From IMG/VR virus record IMGVR_UViG_3300028287_000410, positions 32,001 to 96,000 of that record: a stretch of DNA of 64,000 nucleotides, one strand, 5' to 3'. The notes under the pieces are model-generated. The model searched no databases and was not told the DNA's origin. It saw only the letters and a list, made by a program, of their open reading frames with translations. Source of the stretch: a virus. The position numbers and the translations under genes are program-made. Below are positions 12,236 through 62,557 of the stretch, one piece after another (position 1 is the stretch's first letter; every line of letters begins with the position of its first letter).

Positions 12236-13291
12236 TTATTCTACTAAGTTTAGACCGTCTATAACATCCCCATCAATGACCATATCAACCGGATGTTTTT
12301 CACCATAGAATTCATTCTGTTCCCAGCACTGGTCTTCTTCATTCCAATCAAACCAAGGGCTAACTGCTAATACGTAGTTAGTCCTTTTGTACCCTGGCAT
12401 TGGCTTTGCTACATATGGGCGATGTGTCACATATGTATCCCAAACATACCAATTTCCGGGAGTAAATGACTTTGTTCCATAATCTTCAATTTCAATACCA
12501 TATGCATTCTCTGGATTATCAAGTGCTAAGTTTATACGAAGTTCGTAAAACCAGCTTTCATCTCTGTGCCATAGGAATTTGTTTGCAGTCTCTTGTGTTG
12601 CTTTATCATCGATGCCTTTAATCTGAGCAATGCGACTACGCACAGGCGAAGACTTAATTCTATCCCTTAGTGTGCCTAAATATTCATGTCCAGAACATTC
12701 ACTCCAATTTCTAAATCCCCATGTGTCTGGGTACGTATCTTTGTTGATACGTTCACCTACGTCTTTTCTATCTTCGTATGTATCTAAAAGTTCATTTAGT
12801 ACAGTATCGTCAATTATACCATGTTGATGTAAATATCTAAACCCATGATGCATCCCAAACTCCTGGGTCTCACTCCACAAGTCTTTATCTAGACGTTTTT
12901 CCATAATCTTTTCAAATAATGAAAAGTTCTTCATAAACAGTTCATCTGGAATGTTATTTCTAGGATACCCTAATGTCTGTGCATTCTTTGGAATATTGTC
13001 ATATCTATATGTAGGATTAGTCACCAAACTCAATCCACCATAGTTAGAACTTCTAGCAAATTTACCTTGATATATGTTTAGAAACCCATACCAACCATAC
13101 TTTACGAATGCGTCTTCGATACTGTCTCTTAGTGTGTCCACATCTAATTTCGTATCTTCAAATTCGAACAATACACCTTCTTTGCTTGGTTTCATTGTTT
13201 TAGCATATTTGTCAGTATCCAGAGTTTCTGCAATCCAGGCATGGACTGCTTTTCTATCTGGGCAATCTTTTATGTAAAATCTTTTCTTCAT
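12236..13291 (-). CDS. Putative 2OG-Fe(II) oxygenase-like protein
   Basis: WHRDE (HxD), RINLAL, WDTYVTHRP distal His, RTN. Confidence 0.55.
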   Translation of the reverse strand: MKKRFYIKDCPDRKAVHAWIAETLDTDKYAKTMKPSKEGVLFEFEDTKLDVDTLRDSIEDAFVKYGWYGFLNIYQGKFARSSNYGGLSLVTNPTYRYDNIPKNAQTLGYPRNNIPDELFMKNFSLFEKIMEKRLDKDLWSETQEFGMHHGFRYLHQHGIIDDTVLNELLDTYEDRKDVGERINKDTYPDTWGFRNWSECSGHEYLGTLRDRIKSSPVRSRIAQIKGIDDKATQETANKFLWHRDESWFYELRINLALDNPENAYGIEIEDYGTKSFTPGNWYVWDTYVTHRPYVAKPMPGYKRTNYVLAVSPWFDWNEEDQCWEQNEFYGEKHPVDMVIDGDVIDGLNLVE

Positions 13292-14463
13292 TTTTTATAA
13301 CTCACATCTCCGGGATAGATAGGAACCATTGCGCCGGGCGCACGTTTTGGAATTTTACTGTCAGCACTAGATACACAACTATCTGAAATACACACCTTAG
13401 GCGCATCGAATAGTTTAAACCCACTCTCAATATACCCTAAGGGCTCGTCAGAACAACTGTAAGAGCGTTTAATAGACCCATCAGGCTCACGTATAATAAT
13501 ACCCTTAAACCCGCTTGTACAATCCCAACCTTTAAACTTGTTAAAGTTAAACGCATTAAAGCGTTCTGCTTGGTCCATGTAGTACTTGTCACCTTTACTA
13601 TCTTCGAACTCTACTTGCATGATAGGTGGGACATTCTTATCATCGCCATTAATCATATCCATCTTCCACATGCTTCCTGTGCGTGGCTTTGGACGCATTG
13701 CTTTAATAGTATTCGCTTTTTCAATAGTATCAGTGTACGCACGTTGTGGCATACCATTCTGCATCATCTTTAGTTGTTCGTCTGTGTATCCGTCTACAAC
13801 ACGTGATGCAGTAGGATCTGACTGTGGTTTTAGAGTAACATTGATTCCACGCTCATGAAAGTACATTGCGTTATTCCAATCTCTATCAAACCAGTCTGGT
13901 ACAAGTACCATATTGATTGTTACTTGCACATCATGTTCCATACAGAATAGAAGTTTGTCAGCAAATTCATCCATCTTTGCATATTCACTGTGATAAGATG
14001 CAGTAATACTTGCACGATGAAACTTTGCAACAATGTCACAATATTTCTGAAACCAATCCATCTTACGTGCCATATTTGTTGTCATATGAACAGAGGTATA
14101 ATTAGTGTTATCGACATCATCAGCCAAATGCTGCAAAATATCCAAGTATCCTGGATGAAAAGTAGGCTCACCGCCAGACAAAGAAAAATGGAAACTATTA
14201 AAACTGTTATCACGTGCTTGCCTCTTAATTTCATCTATGGTCGCTAGACACAACTCTGTTGGTCTATGATCTTTTCTATCACTTCTGGCATAAGGCCAGC
14301 AGTACGAACACTTGTAGTTACAGAAACGTCCTAATAACCAAGACACTGAAAACAAATCCCTGTATAAAAGTGTTCGTTGACCTACCTTAACGATATCATC
14401 ATACGGCGTTGCTGTAAAGTCGTATTGTGACCAGTAGTCTGCATCTTTTTCAATCTTATCCAT
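13288..14463 (-). CDS. Radical SAM protein (C-terminal Cys cluster)
   Basis: CNYKCSYC, SGGEPT, GWDC...SC...C....C. Confidence 0.92.
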   Translation of the reverse strand: MDKIEKDADYWSQYDFTATPYDDIVKVGQRTLLYRDLFSVSWLLGRFCNYKCSYCWPYARSDRKDHRPTELCLATIDEIKRQARDNSFNSFHFSLSGGEPTFHPGYLDILQHLADDVDNTNYTSVHMTTNMARKMDWFQKYCDIVAKFHRASITASYHSEYAKMDEFADKLLFCMEHDVQVTINMVLVPDWFDRDWNNAMYFHERGINVTLKPQSDPTASRVVDGYTDEQLKMMQNGMPQRAYTDTIEKANTIKAMRPKPRTGSMWKMDMINGDDKNVPPIMQVEFEDSKGDKYYMDQAERFNAFNFNKFKGWDCTSGFKGIIIREPDGSIKRSYSCSDEPLGYIESGFKLFDAPKVCISDSCVSSADSKIPKRAPGAMVPIYPGDVSYKK

Positions 14464-14465
14464 TA

Positions 14466-15893
14466 TTATACCTTGTATTTTTTCATCGCGTTATATAGTT
14501 CTGGCAACTGACGTTCCATATCTTCGTCGCGGATGTCATCTAACTTGCTGTTATATTCCCAAAACTTTTTATTGTTTTCTTCTGTGAACCAATCTTCTCC
14601 GTACATGAAATTAATATTCGTGTCTAACAGATTATCCATTTTCTTGATAGCCCACTCTGCATTTGCAGGTTTTATCATTCCTATTACGTTTGGATTTTTC
14701 TTAACTAGACTATGAAAATCAATAGTGTGTACTATTTCTTCTTTAAATTCAGTCCTAAATGCTTCCCAACTATCACGTACTTCATCCTTTACATCTTTCG
14801 GTAGGAAACGAGTACTTAATTCATGTGGTTTGTGAATAGGGTGTACATTTGCAAAAGGTTTTAAGTTATTCTTCAGTATAGGAGAGATAACTGCAAAATC
14901 TTGTTCAATCTTCCATTTTAAAAACTCTGGCAAATGAAATGCATTTAGGGAACCGATAGTAAATGCAATCCAGGCTCTAAAATTCATAGTCTGTGTGCCT
15001 ACTTCATCTAGTTTCTTTAGATTTTTTTCTATTAGTTTTGACTTCAATGGGTTGCGTACATATTCTAGTGTGTCTCCGATACCGTCCATAGAGATACCAA
15101 ACTGTACTTGCTTAAAGTTAGTCCATAAGTCTAACGCACGTGGTTGGATATTTGTTAGGTTAGTATTATACTCAAGTGTCATTTCTTTTGCTTTACCTTG
15201 CTCTACACAATACTTTAAGAAATCATAATGTCTTTCAATAATAAGTGGTTCGCCGCCTACTAGATATACGTGTTGCATACCAGCTACGTTCTCTTCTAAG
15301 TTCTCCCAGAAGTGATCTTTGTGTACCCAATCGTAATCATCAGCGACATACTTTCCCTTCTTATTCTTATACATTTCAACGACACCATGTGTGTCTTTGA
15401 ATTTACTTGATCCCCACATTTTAACATAGTCATCATACCAAGCACTAGAATCCATCGGTGAACACATACGACATTTTAAGTTACAAAAGTTACCTAATCG
15501 AATATCGTAATACGTTTGCTTAATATGCTCTAAGTCTATTGTACCATCTTCTTCTGTATGAGCTACCGCCTGATCCCAAGTAATGTGTTGTGCAAAACGT
15601 TCACCATCATTGATACGTCGAGATTTCATACCTGCTTTTTCTTCACGTACACAACGAATACATTCCTTATGCCACTTACCTTCAAGCATAGTAGAACGAA
15701 TTTCTTTTGCTAATGGAGAGTTAATCGCATCAGTGATTTGGTCATGATGCAAATTATAGTTTGTTCCGTCTTCTTTCTTGTAAATACCACGTGTCGGTCC
15801 TTGATTAGCATGACAACACACACGCAAATCTCCATTTGCACGTGTCGAAATGTTTATCCATGGTAGAATACAGAATGTATCACTCTTTTGCAT
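14466..15893 (-). CDS. Radical SAM protein with N-terminal twitch/SPASM domain
   Basis: FCILPW..VCC..CIRC; CNLKCRMC; GGEPL. Confidence 0.92.
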   Translation of the reverse strand: MQKSDTFCILPWINISTRANGDLRVCCHANQGPTRGIYKKEDGTNYNLHHDQITDAINSPLAKEIRSTMLEGKWHKECIRCVREEKAGMKSRRINDGERFAQHITWDQAVAHTEEDGTIDLEHIKQTYYDIRLGNFCNLKCRMCSPMDSSAWYDDYVKMWGSSKFKDTHGVVEMYKNKKGKYVADDYDWVHKDHFWENLEENVAGMQHVYLVGGEPLIIERHYDFLKYCVEQGKAKEMTLEYNTNLTNIQPRALDLWTNFKQVQFGISMDGIGDTLEYVRNPLKSKLIEKNLKKLDEVGTQTMNFRAWIAFTIGSLNAFHLPEFLKWKIEQDFAVISPILKNNLKPFANVHPIHKPHELSTRFLPKDVKDEVRDSWEAFRTEFKEEIVHTIDFHSLVKKNPNVIGMIKPANAEWAIKKMDNLLDTNINFMYGEDWFTEENNKKFWEYNSKLDDIRDEDMERQLPELYNAMKKYKV

Positions 15894-17115
15894 ATTCGTT
15901 CATCTCCGTATCTTCAAAGTTCTCTTCGCCGTTGCCTCTGAAGTCTAATTCTTTACCACAAGTCTTACCGCAAATCCAAAGACGTTCATCTGAATTTGTT
16001 TCCCAGCTTGCTACTAAGTCATTTGCAAAATATGGGGTTTTGAGTATATCAAATAATGAATGTTTTGATAAATCATTGAAATCTTTGCCATATCGTTTCC
16101 ACATATTCTTATTGTCTTCGATACGTCTTGGCGTTGCCATATCGTGTCCTATTTTACTATAGTAATGTCCCTGCCAACAGCAAGGCCATACTTTACCCTG
16201 ATAATCGATAAAAATACTCTTATCTCTTTTAGTTTGACATGCTATTTCTGTAACCTTTACATAATTATCAAACCCTTTGTGCTTTTTAATTACATCATCT
16301 ACTTTATTAGTAGTATTAGATTTTGTTTTTGTAGGTTCTGCTAAAATAGTTGCAAGTGCTTTCTCTTTTTGTTCTGTTGTCTTACTTTCAATTTTCTTTT
16401 TGTTTTTTGCTACATGTTGTTTAGCAACAAATGTTAATTCTTTTTTAGTTTCAATAGCTTCGACTTCTTCTCCCTCGTAATGTGTAGGGATAACATATCT
16501 ATTTGATTTCTTATATCTAAACTTGACAAAGCCCATGTCTTCTGCTAGTTGTCTCGCTTCATCTATCTGATGCTCATTGTGTGCAAAGCCTATGAAGTCC
16601 CAACGTGCAATGCCACCATTAGCAATGAATGCTTTTGCATTACGCATAATAATATTCCACTTAGAATTCACACGATACAAATGATTAGTGTCTTCTAGTC
16701 CATCGATAGCAAAGATAACCTTGTCTGGCTTTCGCATAATAGATGCAAGTTCAATCCACCACGCTTCCGTCTGTGCAGAACCGTTTGTACTCAACGTAAC
16801 TTGTGCTACTCCCATATCTTTGCACATCTTTACCACTTCTAGTAAATATGGATACATGATAGGATCACCGTAGTTCCCATTAATGAATACGTGATTAGGA
16901 AGAAACGGTTTCATGTCTTCCAATGCTTGTTGTATTACTCTAGGATCAGTATCAGTTAAGTCTAAATCATCACGCTTCTTTAGCTTTATGTTATCTCCAT
17001 CCATGCCAGTTGTTCTTCCGCACATCGGGCACAGTAAGTTGCACCTAGAAGTAAGTTCTAAATGCATCACACCTACATCAAATTTGATGTACTCTAAGTT
17101 CTCTGATTTCGCCAT
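15880..17115 (-). CDS. Radical SAM protein with C-terminal SPASM-like domain
   Basis: CNLLCPMC, GNYGDP, FAIDGL, VWPCCW...CGKTC. Confidence 0.92.
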   Translation of the reverse strand: MAKSENLEYIKFDVGVMHLELTSRCNLLCPMCGRTTGMDGDNIKLKKRDDLDLTDTDPRVIQQALEDMKPFLPNHVFINGNYGDPIMYPYLLEVVKMCKDMGVAQVTLSTNGSAQTEAWWIELASIMRKPDKVIFAIDGLEDTNHLYRVNSKWNIIMRNAKAFIANGGIARWDFIGFAHNEHQIDEARQLAEDMGFVKFRYKKSNRYVIPTHYEGEEVEAIETKKELTFVAKQHVAKNKKKIESKTTEQKEKALATILAEPTKTKSNTTNKVDDVIKKHKGFDNYVKVTEIACQTKRDKSIFIDYQGKVWPCCWQGHYYSKIGHDMATPRRIEDNKNMWKRYGKDFNDLSKHSLFDILKTPYFANDLVASWETNSDERLWICGKTCGKELDFRGNGEENFEDTEMNEYAKE

Positions 17116-18689
17116 CTTAAAAATATTTCTTTAGGTAAGTTTCTGTATGCATGATTCAGTTCTTTAATTTGCATTCCTCTAGTAGGAGTGCCGTCCCAGT
17201 CAGCACTATGTAATCGAATTCTATTGTTTAATTTACTAACATCATTAACAAAACGTTTGTATACGTCCCGTCTTTCTTCATATGATTTAATCCACATTGT
17301 GTAACGTGTAGTTATATAGTTACTACTCCACATAACATCCTCAGTTGTATCATCTTGTGTAGTGTCGATCATTGGAAGTAAAGAACTCCAGTCAGTGATT
17401 AAGTTTGCTTGTGTATATGTTACTTTATTATCCCTTACTCTTTCAAAGAACTCATACCATTCTTCCATGCTGTTAAAGATACGCAAGATACTTGCTTCGT
17501 ATGCTTCTTTAGCACGTTCACGTTCTGATGCCCAGTCCTCAGACATATAATCGAAATCTTCATATATAGAGATTAACCCTATATCTTTATTATAATAGTT
17601 TTCTTTCAAAAAGTCAAGATACATATTAAAGTTTCTTGGATCCCATTCTTCATGGACCCACTTGCGTACATCTAATGCATTTTGTGAAATGTCAAAGTAA
17701 TTAATATTAACTGCGTCTATGTCTGTATCAGCATGCCAGTTTCTTAGAAAAGCAAATGTTTTAAATCCTGCTGCAACTGAATACACGTTACGCAACGGCT
17801 TTTTGTTAGGTACCATTTGAATATCGTTTACACTTTCTGTATTTAATATCCACATGGCATGAGGAGAACGTTCAACTGTAAATTGCTGATAACGTAGGAA
17901 TGCAGATTTAGAATCGCCCAAGTCTGACTCCCAATGTTTAAAGTCAGCACATCCTTCTTTAAAGAATTGTTTAAACTCAGTTTGTTCTTCTTTAATTTCT
18001 GGATATAAGTATGTCTTTGTAGCTCTTACATCTTCATCAAAGTTTCCTATAGCAATGCCATTCTCTAGACTAGTGTTTATAAAGTTCCACCCAAATCCAG
18101 TACGAGTAATTTTTTCATAAGCTGGTCCGGGTGCAATATACTTAGGAGTATGCTCATCGTGAAAGTTCTCTATACTACGAAGTGCTTGTCTTACTTCTGT
18201 AGGACGAACACTAAAATCACCGAATGCAGGCTCTCCTAGTTCTTTCCATAATTTATAATTGATTATAAAACATTGCTCATGAAATCTGAACCATCTATCT
18301 TTATGACGTTCATCAAGTATATGTCCCAATATTAGGAATTCATTATTCTGTGCCTTAGGTAAGTATTCGTGATTGCAGTATTCTCTGAATAAACTATATC
18401 CGTGTTCTAGTGGCTTCCAAGCATCATAAAATATATTACCGTATGCTTGAACTACAACCATATCAATATCAGATTCTTTATCATCTGTTTTCATTGCTTG
18501 TAAAATTTTATCTACACTGTCTTCTTCGTAAATAGTATGCTTAAAAAAACTATAATTATTTCGCAAGAAATTATAAGTGATTGCTTTCATGTAATCACTA
18601 ATTTCAGTATCACCTATTGTTTTAGATGTATCTAATACAGCACATCTAATCTGTGGATAAAAGTTATATGATCTTTGTTGCTTCTTCAT
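17094..18689 (-). CDS. Hypothetical protein (possible Rossmann-like C-terminal domain)
   Basis: 531-aa operonic ORF; YSVAAGFK...INYFDISQNAL. Confidence 0.6.
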   Translation of the reverse strand: MKKQQRSYNFYPQIRCAVLDTSKTIGDTEISDYMKAITYNFLRNNYSFFKHTIYEEDSVDKILQAMKTDDKESDIDMVVVQAYGNIFYDAWKPLEHGYSLFREYCNHEYLPKAQNNEFLILGHILDERHKDRWFRFHEQCFIINYKLWKELGEPAFGDFSVRPTEVRQALRSIENFHDEHTPKYIAPGPAYEKITRTGFGWNFINTSLENGIAIGNFDEDVRATKTYLYPEIKEEQTEFKQFFKEGCADFKHWESDLGDSKSAFLRYQQFTVERSPHAMWILNTESVNDIQMVPNKKPLRNVYSVAAGFKTFAFLRNWHADTDIDAVNINYFDISQNALDVRKWVHEEWDPRNFNMYLDFLKENYYNKDIGLISIYEDFDYMSEDWASERERAKEAYEASILRIFNSMEEWYEFFERVRDNKVTYTQANLITDWSSLLPMIDTTQDDTTEDVMWSSNYITTRYTMWIKSYEERRDVYKRFVNDVSKLNNRIRLHSADWDGTPTRGMQIKELNHAYRNLPKEIFLRWRNQRT

Positions 18690-19510
18690 TTTGTTGTTTT
18701 AGCCCAACTCTTTAAAATTAAATCTTCAAAATCTGATCCACCATATTGTCCATGAACAATCATATGCACACGAACTTCATCAGTATCATTCATTACTGCA
18801 TGACGATGACCTACATTCATCTTAAACATATTACCTGGCTTCCACGGAACATACGCATTGTCATCAATCATTTTAAAATGACAATTTTCTGGATTGTTCA
18901 ACGATATATTTAGTGGTCCTAATTTGTTGTGTTCATAATCTGTATGTGGTGTTATATAACCTCCCGGCTCTAAGTACATGTAACGAACTCTATCGAATGC
19001 TCTGTAACCCGGAATAGATTTAATCATCTTAACAGTCTCTGGACATTTATCTGCAATTTCAGTCCAATGATATGCTGCTCTTGCTTCACGTTCATCTGCA
19101 TACACAAAGCCTGCTGCGGCAACATCTTTACTATCCCAATGTTGAGATACATGCTTACCTAACCCATGTAGTGTCAGGGAGCGCCATCCTCTGTGTCCAT
19201 AGTCATCGGGGTTGTTCTCATCATAATCGTTCTTTCTATGTTGAATTGCTTCATCGTAAACTGCCATTGCTTCATTATAACATGCATTCCAATCAAACTC
19301 AGGGACATCTAATTTTAACCATGGGATACCTGACTCGTGTGTAACCCATTTTGCTTGTCTGAAACGTGCTGATGGTGGGAATCTAGGCTCATTCATCATA
19401 GCATCTACAAATGTACCTGGCATCGTATCAAAGCTATAACTATTTCTATCTTTAAAATGTTCTTCTATTGTTTTTGGGTATTCCATTATACCAATCTCCC
19501 GAATGCCCAT
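18686..19510 (-). CDS. Aspartyl/asparaginyl beta-hydroxylase-family 2OG-Fe(II) oxygenase
   Basis: WRSLTLHG, RVRYMYLEPGGYITPHTD, HRHAVMN, RVHMIVH. Confidence 0.8.
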   Translation of the reverse strand: MGIREIGIMEYPKTIEEHFKDRNSYSFDTMPGTFVDAMMNEPRFPPSARFRQAKWVTHESGIPWLKLDVPEFDWNACYNEAMAVYDEAIQHRKNDYDENNPDDYGHRGWRSLTLHGLGKHVSQHWDSKDVAAAGFVYADEREARAAYHWTEIADKCPETVKMIKSIPGYRAFDRVRYMYLEPGGYITPHTDYEHNKLGPLNISLNNPENCHFKMIDDNAYVPWKPGNMFKMNVGHRHAVMNDTDEVRVHMIVHGQYGGSDFEDLILKSWAKTTK

Positions 19511-20142
19511 TTACGTTCTTCGCACCACCAACATTTACCACAATGTCCAGTGACTGGGTCTTCTATGTTTTCAAAATAATTACTAGTAGGATCATATTCA
19601 CAACTTCTAGTAATCGGATAAAGTTCTTCAAGTAAATTTGCTTCTTTATACATTTCTGCAATTTTTAGTTTATCGGAATTAAACCATGGCGTGTAAAATG
19701 TATTATTATGATGCATATATGGATTGTTGCCTGGTGTTCTGTTTGTTTCTGTAACTGGCAATCCAAATGTATCTGTGACTTCTTTTGGAGGGTTTGATGT
19801 TATACCAGTATATATAATTCCTGTTGTGTTACTATCTAAGTATACCTGCAATTTAGGAAATAATTCTTCACGTGTTTGTATTTCACAGTAACTAATATGA
19901 TGTTCAATATTACTATTACTAGTTAACTGAATAATTTTCTCTACTACATTTACTGCCGCTTGAACATTATATCTTGATCTCTGATTATTACCAGTAGTAA
20001 AGATATGTATTGTATCTTCTTTTTCTCGCATTAAATGATAAAGCAAAATAGAACTATCTGCTCCGCCGCTACAACTCACTCCGATCGGACCAGAGTGAAT
20101 ATCTAAGTTTACACCAGCTGGAGAAATAGAGTAATTAATCAT
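19486..20142 (-). CDS. QueC-like PP-loop ATP pyrophosphatase
   Basis: SCSGGADS PP-loop; TRSC...HCGKCWWCEER Zn motif. Confidence 0.75.
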   Translation of the reverse strand: MINYSISPAGVNLDIHSGPIGVSCSGGADSSILLYHLMREKEDTIHIFTTGNNQRSRYNVQAAVNVVEKIIQLTSNSNIEHHISYCEIQTREELFPKLQVYLDSNTTGIIYTGITSNPPKEVTDTFGLPVTETNRTPGNNPYMHHNNTFYTPWFNSDKLKIAEMYKEANLLEELYPITRSCEYDPTSNYFENIEDPVTGHCGKCWWCEERKWAFGRLV

Positions 20143-21697: not shown

Positions 21698-21728
21698 ATT
21701 AACTCCAATACTTTGATTATGTACGTAT

Positions 21729-35158: not shown

Positions 35159-35160
35159 AA

Positions 35161-49309: not shown

Positions 49310-49316
49310 GCATTAC

Positions 49317-50081
49317 TTACTTTTCTATTGTATACCTATTTATATCAAACGGGCTTCTTTTATTTTGTCCGATGTTTATAAAATATTTCATTGCTTGTCT
49401 CGCTAACAACTTTTTATTAGTATCTGACATATGATTTAGTTTTTCAAAATATTTAAGGTTTTCCCTGCGTACTATTTGCATTAAGTTAAACTCATCGCCA
49501 TCAAAAAGGTCACTAAATGAATGTAATACTAATACATCATTTTTCATAGTATTCAAATAAGTTTGTACAAGACTAAATTGATTTTTTACATCATCAGCAT
49601 ACATGCAGCGTGTTAAGTATGTTTGCCAAAATTCTTTATCTTTTTTAAAATATTTACATTGTTCTTTAGGAATAGAGGACAGTTCAAAATCAGGATCTAT
49701 AAATTTCCACGCCGTAGAATGCCAACCTTGAGATTCATCATCTAATAAATTTGTAACACGTGAAGCATTGGTCACGCCGAATATTATAGTATCATTTTCG
49801 TCATACTCAGTTTCCATATAATGAAACAGCATTTGAACACTATAATTTAAACTAGTACCTGAGTTTGCATAATTTAAAAGACTCATATTCAAATTATCTG
49901 CTAATAAACCTGTCCAAGACAGACCTTGATTAGGTATATTATGAATCTTACCCGTGCTATGTTGAAAAAAACTATCCCCGAATACTACTAGCCGCCGGCC
50001 TTTTTTATTATTGTCAGTACGATGGATCTTGCGGTTTTCATAATTTATACTTAGTAATAAATTTTTAAGTCTTCTAGTCAT
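49317..50081 (-). CDS. SGNH-like protein
   Basis: VFGDSF, NYANSGTS, LNHMS; start uncertain. Confidence 0.7.
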   Translation of the reverse strand: MTRRLKNLLLSINYENRKIHRTDNNKKGRRLVVFGDSFFQHSTGKIHNIPNQGLSWTGLLADNLNMSLLNYANSGTSLNYSVQMLFHYMETEYDENDTIIFGVTNASRVTNLLDDESQGWHSTAWKFIDPDFELSSIPKEQCKYFKKDKEFWQTYLTRCMYADDVKNQFSLVQTYLNTMKNDVLVLHSFSDLFDGDEFNLMQIVRRENLKYFEKLNHMSDTNKKLLARQAMKYFINIGQNKRSPFDINRYTIEK

Positions 50082-53825: not shown

Positions 53826-55365
53826 CTACCACAACACCACCTAGTGCGTCATTCTCTGTATCCCAACCACCAACAGCTTTCTCATGTTCATCATCGCCGC
53901 CATCATACGCTTCAGTCGTTGCAGGGTCCCCGGCACGATCCGCAACACTAAGAACAAACGTTTTAGTCTTAATTTGTTCTTCTGTAGGGACTTCCGCTTC
54001 AAGTGTTTGATACCAATCTGCTATTGGACCAGGGAATGTTTCGACAAAGTTATGACCTCTACGCACATCAAACTGTTGAAAGAATGCTTTAAAGTCATGA
54101 TATAGTTTATCTTGCTCGGCTGTATTCTTATGTGGAGTCTTAACAATATCAAGATAATCAATTAGACGTTGAATACTTGCGCGTTCGCCATCAGTCAATG
54201 CTTGTTGATTTAAAAAGAACCATGCTTCTAGTTTGTCTTTATAGAATGTTTTGATATTCACAGGAAGAATTGCCGCACTTTGAAATGATGGGAAACGTAA
54301 AATGTTTAGCGTCATTGTTGGCGCACGTTTTCCATATTCTTTACGTAGTTCAAGCATCTCATCCATGAACTCTGTAATAGTAGTTAAGCATAATGAATTG
54401 ATTGTCATCATCATATGTAACTTCTGTACATTAGATTCTTTAAGAACACGATGGATACTATTCATCCATAGATCATAATCTAGGCCGTCACGTATATACT
54501 CAGCTTGTGTTTTTGCTGCTTCCATCGATGTGTAAATTTCAAAGTTGGGAACATGCCATGATTTCTCGATCAATTTGTCCAACACTTTGGGTGTCTGCGG
54601 AGAGAGATTACTATTGATAGCAAATCTCATGTTACGACCGCGATGTGGATTTTGTTCAAACCAATCAAACAACTTCCATGTACCAGTATGCATAATAGGC
54701 TCGCCGCCTGTAATGCGAATTTCTTCTAAGTTGTCTGCAAGATCACTTTCCCACCATTCGTGAAACGCTTTAATGAACGGGTTGTCTTCTGCTTTTCTTG
54801 CTGCAGGTTCTGCCCATGGTGCAGTGTCAACAAAGTGACCGCGACCATCAGACTGAATGTTTTGATATGCACCATAATCGTTGATGTCTTTAACCCATGC
54901 AGTTGAAAATGCTGGGTTACAATAAGTACATTTTAGATTACATGCTCTATCGAATGAGATTTCAAGTGTGCGTAGAAGCGCATTTTGATCCCATGGCATT
55001 TCCATACTTGCATCAATATCTTCATCTTTGAAGATTTCAGTTTTGAATACACGGTCAGAGATATGGTCTTTACCCATGTCTTCAACTTTCCAACAGTATT
55101 CACATTCTGCTGGGCGCTTACCTTCTTGCATTTGCTTACGCATAAGTTTCTTATGCTTTGTATTGTGAATTGCAGTTGGGTTATCTTTTAATTCTTCAAG
55201 TGGAATCCAGTGCCCGGGCGGGTGGTGACAACTTGCTGTCTGTCCGTGACCTAACCAAATAGTAGCGTTATACCATTTAGCGGCACAGTAGCTTTCACTC
55301 TTGCTGTCGATCATACGCTCTTTGTATTGATGAAGGGTTTCGCCTTCCCAGTGTTTACGCCCCAT
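53818..55365 (-). CDS. Radical SAM protein with N-terminal twitch-like domain
   Basis: CAAKW..SCHHP..CEYCW; CNLKCTYC; GGEPI. Confidence 0.92.
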   Translation of the reverse strand: MGRKHWEGETLHQYKERMIDSKSESYCAAKWYNATIWLGHGQTASCHHPPGHWIPLEELKDNPTAIHNTKHKKLMRKQMQEGKRPAECEYCWKVEDMGKDHISDRVFKTEIFKDEDIDASMEMPWDQNALLRTLEISFDRACNLKCTYCNPAFSTAWVKDINDYGAYQNIQSDGRGHFVDTAPWAEPAARKAEDNPFIKAFHEWWESDLADNLEEIRITGGEPIMHTGTWKLFDWFEQNPHRGRNMRFAINSNLSPQTPKVLDKLIEKSWHVPNFEIYTSMEAAKTQAEYIRDGLDYDLWMNSIHRVLKESNVQKLHMMMTINSLCLTTITEFMDEMLELRKEYGKRAPTMTLNILRFPSFQSAAILPVNIKTFYKDKLEAWFFLNQQALTDGERASIQRLIDYLDIVKTPHKNTAEQDKLYHDFKAFFQQFDVRRGHNFVETFPGPIADWYQTLEAEVPTEEQIKTKTFVLSVADRAGDPATTEAYDGGDDEHEKAVGGWDTENDALGGVVVDD

Positions 55366-56923
55366 ATTTTACCTCGTATTCTTCTTTAGCTTCATTCCAG
55401 AAGTCTGTCATTTCAGGGAATGTTTCTAAGAAATTTAGTCCCCTACGCTTATCGTACTGTGTAAAGTATTCGTAGAAACGAATTAACTTATCACTTAATT
55501 CTGCGTCACTCATATTTAGTCCTTCTTTTGCCCAAGCTAAATCACGCTCAAGTTTTAGGACTTCATAGTTCTTAAACCCAGTGTACTTACGACCATACAA
55601 GTCGTTCTCTAATACGTTAGCTTTCATATAATCAATGTTCTGTTGAATAGTATCTAACATGATAGGATCTGCTAACTGAATGGTCATCCAGTCTGGATAG
55701 CGTAAGTAAGGAATATCAAACCAAATACGTTGACGTTTTTTACGAACAAATTCTGGATGCTTAAATCCATTTCGGTCGGGAGGCTGAATAACTTTGTCTT
55801 CTTGTTTCTCATAGCCAAACTCTTCACGTAGTTTTAGAATCATATCTAAGAACCCACGTAAATTCGGTATACTTAGGAGAGTAAAAGTGTTAATAAATGA
55901 AATCTCTGTACCATCTGTTTCAGATAATACTCGACGGCAATTTTCATACATTGTATCAAAATCAAGACCATCACGCAGATATTCAGCCTGTTTCCCAACA
56001 CTGTCTACACTTACATATAAACTAAAATGTTTACATGCTGGTGCAACATACCAATGATTGCCGCTATCAGGATTGAAACGTTCTGGATCTTCCCAAACAC
56101 GGACTTCTTCTAATTTCTGTATTTTCGCAATGAACTTATCCATTAACGCTGGTTGAGGAGGCGCCATGTTTGACGTAATACTCAAATCTAAGAATGCGTT
56201 TGGATTTTCATTGACGTAATCTAATACTTTGAATGTATTCTTATCCATGAGAGGTTCACCACCTGTCATACGAAATACTTTCAAGTCTTTATATGTTTCT
56301 GGAAACCACTTCCAGAATGCTTCGATATATGGATTATCTTTACGTGCAACTTCAAGTGGCATCATGCCAGTCTTACGTAAGTAATCAATATCATTATGTC
56401 CAGTACCATTTGAGAAGCGGAAGCCACCATGCTTCTTAATATCATCTTCCCATGCTGTACTAAGATGCGGAGAACAATAAGAACACTTTAAGTTACACGC
56501 TTGATTGAAGTTTACTTCAACATATCTCGGTGTAATCTTATGATCCCATGGATTATTTACTACTTCATCCCATGCGTCTTTAACCCACCACTCACTTGAG
56601 CGATAATGTCTGTCACTCAATCTTCCTTCTGTGGGAGCATTGGGCGCATCTTCTACATTCCAACAGTACTGACAACCCTCAGGGCGCTTACCCTGCAACA
56701 TTTGCTTACGCTCTTGCATCTTGAATGTTGTATTGTGTAATGCACCTACATCTTTTTTCAGTTCATCTAACGGAATCGCATGTGTGGGAGGATGATAACA
56801 ACTATGTGTGCGACCTTGTGGTAAATGCAAACTTACTTGCAACCACTTAGCCATACACATTGAAGGTGAAAGAGAATTTAATTTTTGACGTGTTGCTTGT
56901 GCATCGTCATCGTAATTTGACAT
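55355..56923 (-). CDS. Radical SAM protein (paralog of 53818..55365)
   Basis: CMAKW..SCYHP..CQYCW; CNLKCSYC; GGEPL. Confidence 0.92.
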   Translation of the reverse strand: MSNYDDDAQATRQKLNSLSPSMCMAKWLQVSLHLPQGRTHSCYHPPTHAIPLDELKKDVGALHNTTFKMQERKQMLQGKRPEGCQYCWNVEDAPNAPTEGRLSDRHYRSSEWWVKDAWDEVVNNPWDHKITPRYVEVNFNQACNLKCSYCSPHLSTAWEDDIKKHGGFRFSNGTGHNDIDYLRKTGMMPLEVARKDNPYIEAFWKWFPETYKDLKVFRMTGGEPLMDKNTFKVLDYVNENPNAFLDLSITSNMAPPQPALMDKFIAKIQKLEEVRVWEDPERFNPDSGNHWYVAPACKHFSLYVSVDSVGKQAEYLRDGLDFDTMYENCRRVLSETDGTEISFINTFTLLSIPNLRGFLDMILKLREEFGYEKQEDKVIQPPDRNGFKHPEFVRKKRQRIWFDIPYLRYPDWMTIQLADPIMLDTIQQNIDYMKANVLENDLYGRKYTGFKNYEVLKLERDLAWAKEGLNMSDAELSDKLIRFYEYFTQYDKRRGLNFLETFPEMTDFWNEAKEEYEVKYGA

Positions 56924-57901
56924 TTAATGTCCGCTCCAGCCTGTTGTCTTTTCTGTTGCCATTGGATTCTTAACACGAGGCGGATTAGTATATACCCGCT
57001 TAAAGAATGAAGCTACTTCTGGTGTTGGATCACATAGTTCCATACCAATCTTATCAACTAAGATATCGCCAATACGCAGACATTCATCAAACAATTTATC
57101 ATAGTCCCATTCTACTTTTGTATTCTCACATTTCATTTCGCCACCTGAGAACTTGGGTAATACTTCGTTCTCGAAATACTCTTTGAACCAATCATAGCTA
57201 GAAATATTTTCTAGTACAAAATCATCATTCAAGTTCATATCATAACAGCCCAAACGTGCACCGAACAATGCCCAGATACCGTTCTCTACATCAGAACCAA
57301 TGTTACACCATGTGATTAGACGCTCGTAATTCTTAGGCCAGATACGTTTCTTAAAGTCTTCTACTGGAACTTTCTTACCTTCGTCAAGTGACATTTTAGC
57401 ACCTTCACGATACCCTGCACGAAATGCTTGGAACGGTGAACCTGCATTATATACTAGTGAGTATACATTGTTCATCTGAATGTAGTTCAAATCCCAACAG
57501 AAGTCAACCTTTTTAGTTTCATCTTCTGCGTTTTCATGTGTCTTCATATCTAACACAAGTTGTACAGGCCAACACTTAATGCCGCCATTACCGTAGACTA
57601 GACCGTTAACAACATTCTTTGCTGACCATGAAATAACTGAGTTAGCTAAATCTGTACCTTCTGGGAATGTAAGTTTAATATCAAAGAACTTTTCATCTAC
57701 AATGTTATCACCGTCAATAGTAATAAATCTATCTGTATCACTTTGTCTCGCACATTCTTTATGTGCGTTATCAAATCCTTTTACACCGTCTACACGTTTA
57801 GCAAACGGAAACTTCTGTAAGATGTCCGCCCAGTGTTTCTCTTTATTAGGTTCATCGTAACTTAGATAAAAAACATCTAGTTCGCCAATTTCTAATTCCA
57901 T
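56924..57901 (-). CDS. Glycosyltransferase-like protein (homolog of the last module of 27363..31022)
   Basis: LSYDEP, RVDGVKG..AH, TIDGDN, YGNGGIKCW, AFRAGYREG. Confidence 0.7.
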   Translation of the reverse strand: MELEIGELDVFYLSYDEPNKEKHWADILQKFPFAKRVDGVKGFDNAHKECARQSDTDRFITIDGDNIVDEKFFDIKLTFPEGTDLANSVISWSAKNVVNGLVYGNGGIKCWPVQLVLDMKTHENAEDETKKVDFCWDLNYIQMNNVYSLVYNAGSPFQAFRAGYREGAKMSLDEGKKVPVEDFKKRIWPKNYERLITWCNIGSDVENGIWALFGARLGCYDMNLNDDFVLENISSYDWFKEYFENEVLPKFSGGEMKCENTKVEWDYDKLFDECLRIGDILVDKIGMELCDPTPEVASFFKRVYTNPPRVKNPMATEKTTGWSGH

Positions 57902-57903: not shown

Positions 57904-58479
57904 TTATACTCTCCTTAACGAATAACTGTCGAAGTACTTACGAGTGTAAATACTTATATTGTATTTATAGTCGTAGTTAATAGTTACTTTTTCACCACTC
58001 AACAAATCACTAAACTTAATCATTTGCATACTGATAAGAAACTCTGGCCTATCTTTGTGCGTAATGAAGAATGGATGTGAGTCTGTTCCGGCGACTATAA
58101 CGGATTGGTTCTTGTCTACATTTGAACGTTCTACAAGTCCAGCACTTGCACTGATAACAATAGCATCTTCTGTCATTTCTATATTAATGTCAGCGCCGTC
58201 AAGTTCTGTAATCTTTGTTATCTGATTTTCAGAACTACGTTGCTTAATATTGACCTTACGCTTTACAATATCGTACATCAATGGATTGACGTTGCGCTTT
58301 ATAGTGTAGTCCGAAAACTTATACGTGCCATCAATGAACGGAAGAATATCATCTAGTTCAAACATTGCATACATGTTATCAGTATCGTCAGTTCTTCCAC
58401 TGATACTTGTTATAGTACCAGTGTCATCAAAGTACACATATCTGTTTGTTCTGTTTTCTTCTAATGTACTTGTAATCAT
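57904..58479 (-). CDS. Hypothetical protein
   Basis: ATGA-coupled start at 58479. Confidence 0.7.
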   Translation of the reverse strand: MITSTLEENRTNRYVYFDDTGTITSISGRTDDTDNMYAMFELDDILPFIDGTYKFSDYTIKRNVNPLMYDIVKRKVNIKQRSSENQITKITELDGADINIEMTEDAIVISASAGLVERSNVDKNQSVIVAGTDSHPFFITHKDRPEFLISMQMIKFSDLLSGEKVTINYDYKYNISIYTRKYFDSYSLRRV

Positions 58480-59333
58480 AGAACTGCCTTTTCGTAAGTC
58501 GCAATCTTTTCTTGTGTCATCCATTCTTTCTGTACATAATGTACTGGAAGATTTTGAACAAAGTTGCCTATGCGAACTTCAAGATTGTCTGATAATTCAC
58601 TTGGAATACTCTTTGTCCAGATGTTATCAATCTTTGTTCGTTCAATGTTCTGAACGTGAGACTTCATATGCACAAATGTAGGAACATCCTTAATATCATA
58701 ATCGCACACAACTTCTTCAATGTCAAGTAGTTTAATTGCAAGAGCATATGCCATATCAGCACTCATCCAGTTCTGACCAATACCTTTAAGGAACTTGTCA
58801 TAGTAAACATTCCAATGTGTCATGATAAGCTCAACCATACGAAAAAATTCATATGCTGGTTGTGTCTTCTTAAAGTATGAGAAGTTACTGTATACATCTG
58901 GTAGTTCTAGTTCTGTAAACTTCTTGCGATAGAAATCATCTACAACATCTTCGCCACGAAATGTTTTTACATTTGTACAACACCATACGTCTTTAGTAGC
59001 TAGATAATCCCACCAATGATCCACACTATGTGTAAACACCATATCACTATCTAAGATAATCGTTTCATCAAACGGAGACATATGAATGTATTTCCATTTG
59101 TTATGGATTTTCCAGTTGTCTGCACCAGCATCATCGTTCCAAGGAATGTCTACAATATGATCGAAAACTTTGCGATGCTTATCTTGTACTAAACCCTTAG
59201 TGTATTCATCTACGCATACACAAATTGCGTTCTCGCGCTGTGTGGCTTTTAGACTAAGTGCTAGAGCGTATGTCATTTCTAGATAGTCAAACTCATTATT
59301 GTTTTGAGCTATTACAATATAACCTCTACTCAT
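58476..59333 (-). CDS. GT8-like glycosyltransferase
   Basis: SPFDETIILDSD (DxD), FVHMK, PVHY. Confidence 0.7.
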   Translation of the reverse strand: MSRGYIVIAQNNNEFDYLEMTYALALSLKATQRENAICVCVDEYTKGLVQDKHRKVFDHIVDIPWNDDAGADNWKIHNKWKYIHMSPFDETIILDSDMVFTHSVDHWWDYLATKDVWCCTNVKTFRGEDVVDDFYRKKFTELELPDVYSNFSYFKKTQPAYEFFRMVELIMTHWNVYYDKFLKGIGQNWMSADMAYALAIKLLDIEEVVCDYDIKDVPTFVHMKSHVQNIERTKIDNIWTKSIPSELSDNLEVRIGNFVQNLPVHYVQKEWMTQEKIATYEKAVL

Positions 59334-60196
59334 AATGTTTCTCCTAGTTCTAACATCGTATCTACATTACGTTCAATCGCACGTTTATTCATAATATGCA
59401 AATCTGTATTAGTGAAGCGGGACAATAAATGTTCTTCGATTGTTTCTGCTTTAGCACAATACATGATAACATCATTTGCACTGTTTACTCTAAAGATATC
59501 ATCTAAGTCAAATGAATTGTTAAGATAATCAATTGGAAGTGACGGAGCTTTAAATGATACGTTACCATTTAACATATGTAATGCAATAGCAAATGCAAAA
59601 TCATTTCTAAACAAGTTACCAGAGCAATTGTATAGAGCATAATAGTATTTGTAATTGTACTTGATATGTATGATTAGATTGAATAGGTTTTCTGCGAACT
59701 CACTCTTTCTAAAAAAGAATACTGTTGCCCAACACATTGGAATAGTAAAATCATCAATATAGGAAACATTACCGCCATGTCTACCAGCAATGTCCCTATA
59801 TTGATAATTAATCATGAAGTCATTCTCGCTTCCCCATACCTGGTCAAGAGTATCACTCATTATAAAGTAATCACAATCAATGACTAGAGTTTCTTCATAT
59901 GGTGAAAGTTCATATACTTCACTGCGTCCCATATTTTTGAAAGACGCATACTCAGGACTATTCGCAGTATCTTTAAATAGTCTAGTATTCTCTGGTTGAA
60001 AGTTATCTGAAATAATAGTTCTGTCGAAATATTGTTTGATTAGTTCTGGATGTTCATCTGCTGATGCGCTATCAGTGACTAGACAGATTTCATCAAATTC
60101 ACTAAGATTTTTTCTAGCGTATCCAGCACTTGCACATGCAATTTTTACATAATCAACGTAACCATTATTTCTTGCAAAAAGAATAATACCACGCAT
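59330..60196 (-). CDS. GT8-like glycosyltransferase (paralog of 58476..59333)
   Basis: SPYEETLVIDCD, RNDFAFAIA, HIMNK. Confidence 0.7.
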   Translation of the reverse strand: MRGIILFARNNGYVDYVKIACASAGYARKNLSEFDEICLVTDSASADEHPELIKQYFDRTIISDNFQPENTRLFKDTANSPEYASFKNMGRSEVYELSPYEETLVIDCDYFIMSDTLDQVWGSENDFMINYQYRDIAGRHGGNVSYIDDFTIPMCWATVFFFRKSEFAENLFNLIIHIKYNYKYYYALYNCSGNLFRNDFAFAIALHMLNGNVSFKAPSLPIDYLNNSFDLDDIFRVNSANDVIMYCAKAETIEEHLLSRFTNTDLHIMNKRAIERNVDTMLELGETL

Positions 60197-60576
60197 TAGA
60201 TTTCAAGTACCTTTTCAATTTTACGAGAGCTACGTAACTTTTGATAGTCATTGTAGTATTCGTTAATTACTTCAAAGTAAAGACTGCTAATGTCTTCTAA
60301 GAACTTTGTAGTATCATCGATTTGAATTGGAATATCATTCTTATCTAATAGAATTAAACTTGATTTGCCAGATGTCACAGCCATATTTACAAAAGCAATC
60401 AACTCTTGCGATACACGAAATGTACCACCGTTTGTGCTATAAGACAATAGGTTCTGTGTCTTGACTTTAAGATTATTCTTAGCCAAGTTAAATGTTTGCA
60501 TTGTATTTGAAAAGTCTAGTGCTTTAGCAAGACGTTCTTGCTCTTCGCTAGAGGAATTAATAGTTTCGTTTGACAT
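60196..60576 (-). CDS. Phage hypothetical protein
   Basis: AGGAG RBS; NGGTF, ILLDKNDIPI; first gene after promoter. Confidence 0.75.
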   Translation of the reverse strand: MSNETINSSSEEQERLAKALDFSNTMQTFNLAKNNLKVKTQNLLSYSTNGGTFRVSQELIAFVNMAVTSGKSSLILLDKNDIPIQIDDTTKFLEDISSLYFEVINEYYNDYQKLRSSRKIEKVLEI

Positions 60577-60602: not shown

Positions 60603-60631
60603 ATTATATAGAATTATTAGTCAAATGTCAA
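60603..60631 (-). promoter_or_regulatory. sigma70-type promoter heading the tailoring operon
   Basis: Minus strand TTGACA-17-TATAAT. Confidence 0.75.
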
Positions 60632-60634: not shown

Positions 60635-61609
60635 TTAAAGTTCAGAAATATGAGAGTATGTTGGAGTTGGTATGACAACACCGTTACCTGATGGGTCATT
60701 ATCATCTGCACGTTGTTGGTCAATCGTTACAGTAAGTGTGCCTTCGGTATAATCAGTGCCTGTCCAAGAGCCGCCGCCGTCGTTTGTCCATGTACCAGTA
60801 TCTGATACGTGGCCATCGTTGTATTCAATTTTGATATCAACTGCGGCGCCGTTTGTTCTTGCATATACATTAAGTTGGTTCTGCACGTAATCACCAGTGC
60901 CACCTTTTGTGTACACAAGTGCGTATGTTGCTGTTAAACTAGTAAATCCTACACCCGGAGTACCAACACTTGCTGAACTCTCTGTGGAATTATTTGATAG
61001 TTTAACCATTGCAATCGCTGTAAGTAAATCAGCCCATGAATCACTTTGTGCGTGTGATACATCATAACCTGTTAATTCTGTAGACAAACGAATTTCACCG
61101 CCTGTGTTAAAGAAGTTACGCATCGCATCTGTATCTGCAAATGTAGTTTTGAATTCGTAATTTTGTGGGTTATTTGAATTATCCCAATGATTGCCTGCCG
61201 TTGCAGGATCTACGAATGTCTTTGATGACGAAATTTTGTTTGTCTCAAGCGTCATCAAAGAGATGTCGTAGTTTAATTTGTTAGCACGAACACTTGCTAT
61301 ATCCGCTACAAGTGTAGGAATAAGTTCAATGATTCTATTAGGTGCCGGAAAGTCAGGGTCTGTTGTGACTGCAGGTATACTAATAGTCGTAGCTTGGTGC
61401 AAAGCGGCGAATTTTATAGATGTTAATAATTCATCCCAATTCGCCGCTCTGACTTTTGAACCAGCAGTCACAAGAGTCACTAGTAGCTGTGATTGCCCAT
61501 AACCTGAATCACCTGCCCCTAATCCAACAATCTCATTAATATCATTTGCGAAACCATTGAAATCAGATGCTCTGATTTTGCCTCCCAGATAGTAACTTTG
61601 TGGTGCCAT
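60635..61609 (-). CDS. Putative virion structural protein
   Basis: G.KI.ASDFN, GYGQ, FFNTGGEIR; Thr/Ser/Gly-rich. Confidence 0.65.
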   Translation of the reverse strand: MAPQSYYLGGKIRASDFNGFANDINEIVGLGAGDSGYGQSQLLVTLVTAGSKVRAANWDELLTSIKFAALHQATTISIPAVTTDPDFPAPNRIIELIPTLVADIASVRANKLNYDISLMTLETNKISSSKTFVDPATAGNHWDNSNNPQNYEFKTTFADTDAMRNFFNTGGEIRLSTELTGYDVSHAQSDSWADLLTAIAMVKLSNNSTESSASVGTPGVGFTSLTATYALVYTKGGTGDYVQNQLNVYARTNGAAVDIKIEYNDGHVSDTGTWTNDGGGSWTGTDYTEGTLTVTIDQQRADDNDPSGNGVVIPTPTYSHISEL

Positions 61610-61639
61610 TTAATTTGTCCTCAGTATATTATTCTTTTA

Positions 61640-62557
61640 TTATAGTGTATTTGTAACTGTGAAAGATGGATTAGTTATGCTTACTGATCCGCTTGCGTTT
61701 GTGAGTTTTAATGAAGACACATTAACAGTCGATGTACCTGGAACAACATCTTGTCCAGTCCATGACCATGCGCCGCCGTAACCTGAACCAGAACCACTAC
61801 GTGCTACGTGTGCATCTACTAGACGTACTGTAACATAGATGTCTGAACCTGACTTATATGCAGAGATATCTGCATAGTTAGATGAATAATCACCATCGTT
61901 AGCATACTCGCGTTTGATGTATGCATTTGATGTTGATAAATCTGAATACTTTTTACGTGTTGATGTATCAATGTTAGTTGAATCTGTTGCACGTGCTGAA
62001 ATGCGATATGTTCCCACTTCTGCTGTTAACTGTTCCCATGACGTACCTTGTTGATTACTAGTTGTGTCACTGTGTGACATTGAAATACGAATTTCGCCGC
62101 CTGCAGCGAACCACGCATCCATAGTTGCAGTTGAACCAAAAGAAATACGTGTTACTGTATCACGTGTGCCGTTCCAGTTAGAAACAGTCTGCGATGTTTC
62201 TGTTACTGCTGACATATCCCAACCTGAAGAATAACTCCATGGTGAATTGAAACGTGTGTTGATTTCAGTTTCGAATGTTGCTGCTGCACCTGCATAGTGT
62301 GACCATGCAACTGTTGTACCTGCATTCACTGCTGTGAAAGGGTTCGAAATGTTATAATAGTTTGAAATTTTTGCTGCCGCCGAGAAAATTGAATCGAAGT
62401 ATGCATCATCGATTACATTACCTGTAACTGGGTTGTCAGCAATTGAGTGACCTTGGTTGTAGCCGCCAAGAACACCTGTTCCATTAAGAATAGTGTTCAT
62501 TTTGGTACGTAGGCTTGCAAATGGGTCATTTGCGTTAATAGTTGATCCTACAGCCAT
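61640..62557 (-). CDS. Putative virion structural protein (paralog of 60635..61609)
   Basis: MAVGSTI.A, GYNQ, WFAAGGEIR; Ser/Thr-rich. Confidence 0.65.
   Translation of the reverse strand: MAVGSTINANDPFASLRTKMNTILNGTGVLGGYNQGHSIADNPVTGNVIDDAYFDSIFSAAAKISNYYNISNPFTAVNAGTTVAWSHYAGAAATFETEINTRFNSPWSYSSGWDMSAVTETSQTVSNWNGTRDTVTRISFGSTATMDAWFAAGGEIRISMSHSDTTSNQQGTSWEQLTAEVGTYRISARATDSTNIDTSTRKKYSDLSTSNAYIKREYANDGDYSSNYADISAYKSGSDIYVTVRLVDAHVARSGSGSGYGGAWSWTGQDVVPGTSTVNVSSLKLTNASGSVSITNPSFTVTNTL

Follow-up and report, generated by a model that had tools for sequence, protein, structure and literature searches.

The stretch analysed here, called the window, comprises 64,000 nucleotides (bases 32001-96000) of the 107,762-bp linear IMG/VR virus contig IMGVR_UViG_3300028287_000410 and carries on its minus strand a large cassette in which glycosyltransferase-like genes and genes for radical S-adenosylmethionine (SAM) enzymes follow directly on phage structural genes (Table 1). 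Gene content was assessed by Pfam, NCBIfam and PHROG scans of every open reading frame (ORF) of at least 80 aa. A preliminary description of the locus, made from the sequence alone, had seen one co-oriented run of genes; we found that a 9.5-kb mixed-strand island (34238-43510) separates two blocks of minus-strand genes (63999-43645 and 34071-12236), although each block is indeed tightly coupled, with intergenic gaps of -125 to +7 nt and translational coupling of its genes. Enzyme block 1 (60576 to 43645) runs from p126 through GT8a, GT8b, p206, GTx, R1-R5, p260, p336, R6 and R7 to a weakly GT34-like protein, p287 and a DUF6071 protein. A short segment with a cupin, a second DUF6071 protein and a carbamoyltransferase connects it to block 2 (31022 to 12236), which holds p1219, a TenA/PqqC-like protein, p469, R8, rsB, rsC, R9, a PP-loop protein, an Asp/Asn hydroxylase, p531, rsD, R10, rsE and p351. 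No clear membrane segment was detected in any cluster enzyme, and no flippase or polymerase was found; the sole flagged stretch (residues 152-170 of the TenA/PqqC-like protein, score 1.77) is weak. As predicted from its sequence, the cassette is an entirely soluble, cytoplasmic system.

Table 1. Coordinates of the features of the cassette and its upstream structural genes, in window positions
Feature	Position	Strand	Remarks
S0, virion (baseplate-distal) protein, phrog_11259	62635..63297	-	PHROG E 2e-30
S1, Ser/Thr-rich, Cys-free structural paralog of S2	61640..62557	-	
S2, fast-evolving structural protein	60635..61609	-	synteny; always just before the cassette
sigma70-type promoter TTGACA-17-TATAAT	60603..60631	-	perfect, 12/12 match; between S2 and p126
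p126, conserved small protein	60196..60576	-	first gene of the enzyme operon
GT8a, glycogenin-like GT8 paralog	59330-60196	-	
GT8b, glycogenin-like GT8 paralog	58476-59333	-	
p206, conserved protein	57904..58524	-	homologs: RsoM2USA ORF351 (27%), close relatives
GTx, GT-A-fold putative glycosyltransferase	56924..57901	-	model and invariant DxD
R1 to R5, five tandem N_Twi radical SAM	50074..56923	-	NF033640 237-383 bits
p336 and p260	48299..50099	-	homologs inside relatives' cassettes
R6 and R7, N_Twi radical SAM	45938..48294	-	NF033640 350 and 320 bits
weak GT34-like protein	45076-45948	-	Pfam below cut-off
p287	44220-45083	-	block 1
SGNH-like DUF6071 protein	43645-44232	-	end of block 1; Pfam below cut-off
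cupin	33466-34071	-	below Pfam cut-off
DUF6071/SGNH-like protein	32714-33445	-	
NodU/CmcH-type carbamoyltransferase	31061-32593	-	Pfam
p1219, 1219 aa, repeated GTx-like (GT-A) domains	27363..31022	-	
p469 and TenA/PqqC-like protein	25029..27385	-	paralogs over their C-terminal halves
block 2 tail, R8 through p351	12236..25028	-	all gaps <=2 nt; rsD with C-terminal SPASM
PP-loop protein	19486-20142	-	QueC match over motif region only, E 5e-7
Asp/Asn beta-hydroxylase	18686-19510	-	E 5e-17

Radical SAM enzymes, glycosyltransferases and accessory genes

Fifteen ORFs of the window matched the radical SAM domain PF04055, with the CxxxCxxC motif intact in all of them, which bears out the radical SAM genes named in the preliminary description. 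Ten are full-length members of NF033640 (N_Twi_rSAM) with 237-430 bits at a curated cut-off of 170 bits, and the contig as a whole holds 13 members above this cut-off, compared with none in 14 control genomes. In the Pfam scan, SPASM falls at residues ~5-110, ahead of Radical_SAM, and an N-terminal Cys-rich twitch domain precedes the core. All ten window proteins have a GGEP motif in common, and their alignment with five database homologs revealed C33, C76, C79, C130, C134 and C137 to be invariant and C14 to be nearly so. The family has at least 1,746 environmental matches; the closest solved radical SAM structures (SkfB, anSME, BlsE, viperin and GDGT synthase) match the core only.

The ten paralogs are mutually 22-28% identical, with the cluster cysteines kept in all, whereas orthologs of R1, R2, R5 and R6 are 55-95% identical in other contigs, in which GT8 and S2 proteins reach only ~30%. 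Judged by this difference, the ten paralogs are old, individually conserved enzymes, and, being divergent and yet each conserved, they fit a multi-step pathway, not redundancy. A gene for S-adenosylmethionine synthetase (MetK; E 2e-101 against solved MetK structures) lies outside the window at contig positions 21013-22098 (+) and could plausibly supply SAM to the 18 radical SAM enzymes of the contig. One listed ORF of block 2 (20135-21853, minus strand) shares 125 nt with the gene upstream of it; the family match does not cover its first 76 residues, and translation probably begins at an internal ATG near residue 52.

Four to six glycosyltransferase-like genes are present in the window. GT8-like and GT-A genes had both been claimed, and both claims held. 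A family profile of GT8a and GT8b matched glycogenin-1 and -2 in the Protein Data Bank (PDB) with E 7e-6 to 1e-4 over profile positions 4-109; as neither protein gave a Pfam match at E 0.01, their membership in GT8 is distant. For GTx, the PDB sequence search returned no match, while residues 1-153 of its structure model (predicted local distance difference test, pLDDT, 84) matched GT-A/nucleotidyltransferase folds with Z up to 10.0 (root-mean-square deviation 3.1, 138 aligned residues) and a Foldseek probability of up to 1.0; D63 and D65 of its D-x-D motif are invariant. The top structure matches are all GT-A transferases or nucleotidyltransferases, and the fold fits a transferase and a sugar nucleotidyltransferase alike. 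Residues 994-1216 of p1219 form a GTx paralog (33% identity, E 1e-31) preceded by weaker GTx-like repeats, and its closest protein-atlas clusters are virus-only. In the databases, GTx often occurs within proteins of 800-1200 aa, and two such clusters carry a GT2 domain.

Among the accessory genes, the carbamoyltransferase is the clearest of those proposed earlier, with Carbam_trans_N and Carbam_trans_C above the Pfam cut-off (152 and 185 bits, E 8e-55 and 4e-44); it co-occurs in 15 related loci. Its identity as a NodU ortholog was rejected, since the equivalog model gave 149 bits against a cut-off of 1000. Other parts of the proposed toolkit fared less well. The SGNH-like assignment is weak and comes from two DUF6071 matches and from virus protein-atlas clusters that were automatically named SGNH- or GDSL-like; the DUF6071 proteins showed no pairwise similarity to a GDSL-like family found in the cassettes of 11 related loci. 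The Asp/Asn beta-hydroxylase stands, the cupin and PP-loop assignments are weak, and the claimed methyltransferases had neither a Pfam match nor a motif I in the window. The first gene of the operon, p126, is conserved in at least nine loci and as ORF354 of Ralstonia phage RsoM2USA; it matched no Pfam or PHROG family above threshold, with NPF as its sole match below the cut-off (E 0.0086, 17 bits). PHROG searches gave no match for eight unknown enzymes of the cassette, PDB sequence searches none for p469, p531 and p351, and Pfam, PHROG and PDB searches none for p336 and p260. The C-terminus of p469 is 32% identical to ORF347 of RsoM2USA, and the trio of GT34-like protein, p287 and DUF6071 protein is kept together in the two closest relatives (L001 and L002).

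Conservation of the cassette behind a structural module

Upstream of the cassette and on the same strand, the gene order is baseplate wedge (phrog_10646), a virion structural protein of 2957 aa (phrog_10938), the C-terminus of which forms the last ORF of the window, S0, S1 and S2. The earlier claim of Ser/Thr-rich structural genes was confirmed: serine and threonine make up 26.9% of S1 (z 4.3) and 20.4% of S2 (z 2.4), and cysteine is absent from S1, S2 and p126. The structural role of S1 and S2 is supported by the upstream PHROGs and by homologs in Pseudomonas phage PA5oct, where the S0 homolog EST35_0126 and the S2 homolog EST35_0123 carry notes of detection by electrospray ionization tandem mass spectrometry (ESI-MS/MS) and are annotated as part of the baseplate module. 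A model of S2 (pLDDT 72) shows N-terminal helices and a C-terminal beta-sandwich. It gave no Foldseek match at E <=0.001, the sequence had no PDB match, and a wide structure comparison returned lectin-, carbohydrate-binding-module- or tailspike-like beta-sandwiches at Z 4-7, which is within noise.

Homologs of S0 were found in 85 jumbo phage records, including PA5oct-like, Rak2/121Q-like, SCTP-2 and Xanthomonas phages, and homologs of S2 in PA5oct-like phages and RsoM2USA. At the DNA level, megablast against 50,697 phage records gave no match; the close protein homologs originate from marine assemblies, including Tara Oceans. Based on the distribution of the S0 and S2 homologs, the source is a marine jumbo phage of roughly 350 kb that belongs to a PA5oct/Rak2/RsoM2USA supergroup and is distantly T4-like. 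The identity of a classic pelagimyophage was rejected on account of the same homologs and of the CheckV estimate, by which the contig is ~30% complete.

To judge synteny across relatives, a check named in the preliminary description, 66 IMG/VR loci with a close homolog of R4 were retrieved. Their recurring order is S2-like, p126, GT8a, GT8b, small ORF, GTx, R1, R2, (R3/R4), R5, R6 and R7, with the carbamoyltransferase later on; the core from S2 to the first radical SAM genes thus recurs in many uncultured phage contigs, with a median of five and a maximum of 11 family members per locus. GTx or GT8 homologs lie <=10 kb from the radical SAM arrays in 40 of the 66 viral loci, and in 18 of the 23 loci of at least 18 kb. 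In two of them (L010 and L011), block 1 is directly followed by homologs of p1219, rsB, rsE, p469, R9 and rsC, and because of this contiguity we regard blocks 1 and 2, by gene order, as one system. The relatives' cassettes also include UDP-glucose/GDP-mannose dehydrogenase, APS kinase, methyltransferases, 2-oxoglutarate-dependent oxygenases and B12-radical SAMs. As far as gene order and sequence can tell, the cassette is real and conserved well beyond chance. The claimed linkage to structural genes holds as well, given that the order of baseplate wedge, giant virion protein, S0, S1, S2 and cassette is kept through to ORF362-347 of RsoM2USA, the only record of the phage collection with GTx or GT8b matches.

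The same cassette was encountered on three contigs binned into Haliscomenobacter and Legionellales metagenome-assembled genomes (MAGs), which may be mis-binned phage DNA. Among 148 neighbours of N_Twi genes in 20 cellular loci, GT2 and radical SAM genes were tied as the commonest (six each). On a 1.27-Mb Parcubacteria MAG contig (L102), about 12 radical SAM genes stand in tandem at 573-14100, several of them 42-58% identical to block 2 enzymes of the phage (rsB, R9, R10 and rsE), and the next ORF has, by eye, a GT-B-like look; the array could stem from an exchange of genes with phages or be part of an integrated element. In two Elusimicrobia MAG contigs (L074 and L096), matches to N_Twi radical SAMs extend along the length of giant ORFs (680-1040 aa), which suggests fused multi-radical-SAM proteins or unclear gene boundaries.

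Transcription, product and acceptor

The enzyme operon starts from the perfect sigma70-type promoter of Table 1, 24-28 nt upstream of the p126 start codon, and a near-consensus promoter was present at the same position in six of ten relatives, down to 34% protein identity. The preliminary description had relied on late-type promoters, a point that did not hold: the T4-type late promoter TATAAATA matched 4 times against 9 expected by chance, and the one copy located ~60 nt before GTx is not above chance. The sigma70 promoter removes this argument and keeps early-acting targets, namely DNA and the host surface, in play. Since no terminator was seen between S2 and p126, late read-through from the structural genes is possible as well and probably also occurs.

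The best available reading of the gene content is that of a cassette for glycan assembly, with radical chemistry as the means of tailoring. The earlier notion of a toolkit for a complex glycan fits the number of glycosyltransferase-like genes, their linkage to the arrays and the sugar genes of the relatives. From the families, folds, synteny, promoter and lack of membrane segments described above we infer the following chemistry, order and acceptor. The GT8 pair, GTx and the multi-domain p1219 would assemble an oligosaccharide from nucleotide sugars; each diverged N_Twi radical SAM would then perform a different hydrogen-abstraction step, for instance epimerisation, oxidation, deoxygenation or C-C chemistry. 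Further decorations may come from the carbamoyltransferase, SGNH-type acyl enzymes, hydroxylases and heme-oxygenase-like proteins. The operon would be read early from the host-type sigma70 promoter, probably also late by read-through, and the acceptor would most likely be S1, S2 or a neighbour, as baseplate or fibre proteins from the genes immediately upstream. We slightly favour such a virion protein over host envelope, DNA or a small molecule, at a probability of roughly 0.35.

Several points weigh against a virion acceptor or the glycan chemistry. Phages that lack the cassette have homologs of S0 and S2 too, and adjacency could thus simply reflect insertion at a module boundary. A conserved sigma70 promoter means early expression, which suits modification of DNA or the host surface at least as well. 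Further, no Ser, Thr or Tyr that could serve as acceptor is conserved in p126, and S2 is, in Foldseek and structure comparison, a fold without significant match. On the side of the enzymes, the N_Twi members of Paenibacillus adjoin ketosynthases and not glycosyltransferases, to our knowledge no NF033640 member has a known substrate, and SkfB, anSME, BlsE and viperin are core-level matches only.

The early promoter would fit remodelling of the host envelope, in which the enzymes build or alter lipopolysaccharide or capsule glycan early in infection and, for example, block superinfection. GT8 is mainly a lipopolysaccharide family, O-chain modification has been proposed for pelagimyophages (PMC7029224), the hydroxylase is weakly similar to LpxO/OlsC, and the polysaccharide-type APS kinase, UDP-glucose dehydrogenase and GDSL genes of the relatives point the same way. 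However, about 40 genes come without any membrane segment, initiating phosphoglycosyltransferase, flippase, polymerase or Gtr-type protein, the investment would be very large for a lytic jumbo phage, and the LpxO/OlsC matches are far below the cut-offs, so that we hold an envelope target to be unlikely.

Hypermodification of DNA, with glycosyltransferases and tailoring enzymes decorating a modified base and so evading restriction, would agree with the early promoter, too. According to PMC12619734, which cites Pyle 2024 for it, phage glycosyltransferases are able to assemble varied glycans on DNA. ThyA and DHFR adjoin block 2, and the contig has both the PP-loop/QueC-like gene and a radical SAM gene (contig 20074-20943, plus strand) whose N-terminal 30 residues match QueE, the 7-carboxy-7-deazaguanine synthase (E 7e-6), a pair that gives a weak hint, from sequence, of deazapurine chemistry. 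ThyA proved canonical as described (PCH and PFNIASY motifs) and is the sole ThyA homolog in the 108-kb contig, and the Pfam scans, which cover ~30% of the genome and are weak in this respect, found no hydroxymethylase, base kinase or DNA-binding module. The preference for virion over DNA in the preliminary description hence keeps its footing in the conserved linkage to structural genes and loses it in the promoter, which is of the early sigma70 type. The canonical ThyA carries no weight: T4 has both td and gp42, so a canonical enzyme does not exclude DNA modification, nor does a single homolog when 70% of the genome is unseen. Altogether, we consider a DNA target quite improbable.

A small-molecule product is an alternative to which the carbamoyltransferase, with its match to NodU, lends itself; enzymes of the NodU/TobZ type typically act on small glycosides. 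The cassette would then make a glycosylated secondary metabolite (aminoglycoside-, nucleoside- or glycolipid-like) that is released or used in infection. N_Twi radical SAMs beside ketosynthase, nonribosomal peptide synthetase or polyketide synthase genes in Paenibacillus and a Bacillota MAG, and the halogenase/ketosynthase cluster in the same window, agree with this. We rate such a small molecule as rather unlikely, somewhat below an envelope target: in soil and marine phages alike the cassette stays in one place behind the baseplate/fibre genes, transporter and resistance genes are absent, and the multiple GT-A repeats are of a polymerising type.

The affinities of the radical SAMs themselves lead to a last alternative, a maturation akin to that of ribosomally synthesised and post-translationally modified peptides (RiPPs), in which the twitch enzymes and hydroxylases act straight on amino-acid side chains of a phage protein or peptide. 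Peptide maturation is the typical role of SPASM/twitch enzymes, partial matches to SkfB, PapB, CcpM and anSME were seen here, and an Asp/Asn hydroxylase is present. Yet the Pfam scans revealed no RiPP recognition element (RRE)/PqqD domain, intra-block gaps of <=7 nt are too short to hold a precursor gene, cysteine is missing from p126 and the adjoining structural proteins, and the consistent partners are glycosyltransferases; we regard this maturation as very improbable. Its thioether variant was rejected because the candidate substrate proteins are without cysteine.

Returning to glycan assembly on a virion protein, one may go a step further and suppose that the N_Twi family is a new class of carbohydrate-editing radical enzymes, whose arrays in phages build hypermodified glycans on baseplate/fibre proteins. 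We put this forward tentatively and with considerable doubt. If true, it would mean a phage glyco-code from chemistry without characterised precedent, ranging from a one-enzyme core up to ~13 paralogs. Marine phages of this type are abundant in Tara Oceans sequences and devote up to ~45 kb to the system; a substrate for NF033640 would open an enzyme family with thousands of environmental members, and a product that decorates the virion would matter for host recognition and for the arms races between marine phages and their hosts.

Further genes of the window lie outside the two blocks. The island has its own radical SAM (within 34238-38394; TrsS/Tes-like, lipid-type similarity), two paralogous unknown proteins (35397 and 36388, 38% identical), a minus-strand unknown (37405) paralogous to 40730, a pentapeptide-repeat protein and, at 41765-43510 (+), a protein in which a hydrophobic segment at the N-terminus is combined with PG_binding_1 and FG-GAP repeats, which adjoins the end of block 1 also in L001 and L002. 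Within the island, 832 nt (38395-39226) hold small ORFs of 25-79 aa only and none of at least 80 aa, and fall in the 2-kb bin of highest GC of the window (0.41); tRNA and Rfam searches found nothing, including in this stretch. A separate biosynthetic cluster (573-7313, plus strand) encodes an AMP-ligase, a tryptophan-halogenase family protein, a fatty-acid desaturase and a ketosynthase (Pfam E 1e-10 to 6e-90). Between it and the DHFR/ThyA genes, at 7371-9267 (+), sit a DUF2201 metallopeptidase/VWA-like protein and an overlapping HNH endonuclease.

Comparison with known systems

Glycosylation of the chlorovirus capsid, with multi-domain glycosyltransferases of the PBCV-1 A64R type, is a precedent for virions decorated by virus-encoded enzymes. 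Another is glycosylation of the mycobacteriophage virion, in capsid and tail (Freeman 2023, as cited in PMC12619734). Both systems share with our cassette soluble GT-A enzymes beside structural genes, and PBCV-1 A64R is among the fold matches of GTx; they are not known to have a radical SAM component.

Within the radical SAM superfamily, the ten window proteins share with NF033640 the full-length match, the N-terminal Cys-rich domain, CxxxCxxC and GGEP; particular to this phage are a 10-fold presence in the window, a 13-fold presence in the contig and the wiring to glycosyltransferases. With the carbohydrate/nucleoside twitch enzymes BtrN, BlsE, viperin and MoaA they have in common a radical SAM core and one auxiliary cluster. 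The partial PDB/NCBIfam matches include BlsE, viperin and MoaA, with a similarity confined to the core (20-42 bits), and the auxiliary domain is N-terminal in the phage N_Twi enzymes, in contrast to its C-terminal position in BtrN and MoaA.

Radical SAM genes have been noted in marine phages before. A T4-like marine genome carries 12 of them (Nishimura et al. 2017, PMC5332604), and the "host recognition cluster" of pelagimyophages combines radical SAM cassettes with GT8 genes, which was interpreted as a means to modify the O-chain of the host (Zaragoza-Solas et al. 2020, PMC7029224). The pelagimyophage/cyanomyophage cluster is similar to ours as a large variable region after a giant structural protein and fibres with GT8 genes and radical SAM cassettes. 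The two studies note the genes only and define no conserved core cassette, promoter or family, and, unlike the pelagimyophage cluster, the structural genes of our contig group with the jumbo phages PA5oct, Rak2 and RsoM2USA. In PA5oct, the module consists of baseplate wedge, giant protein, S0 homolog, a gp10-like protein, one further protein and the S2 homolog, and ends there without a cassette. The cultured Ralstonia jumbo phage RsoM2USA, by comparison, has a minimal cassette (ORF355-347, identities 24-47%) in the order S2, p126, GT8a, GT8b, p206, GTx, one R1-type radical SAM, a second GTx and a p469C-like protein, with ORF353 and ORF352 being 34% and 41% identical to GT8a and GT8b. It follows ORF362 (baseplate wedge) and ORF361, which mass spectrometry showed to be a virion protein (PMC8504454, where XacN1 is given as the closest relative of the phage), and makes the question of product and acceptor testable at the bench.

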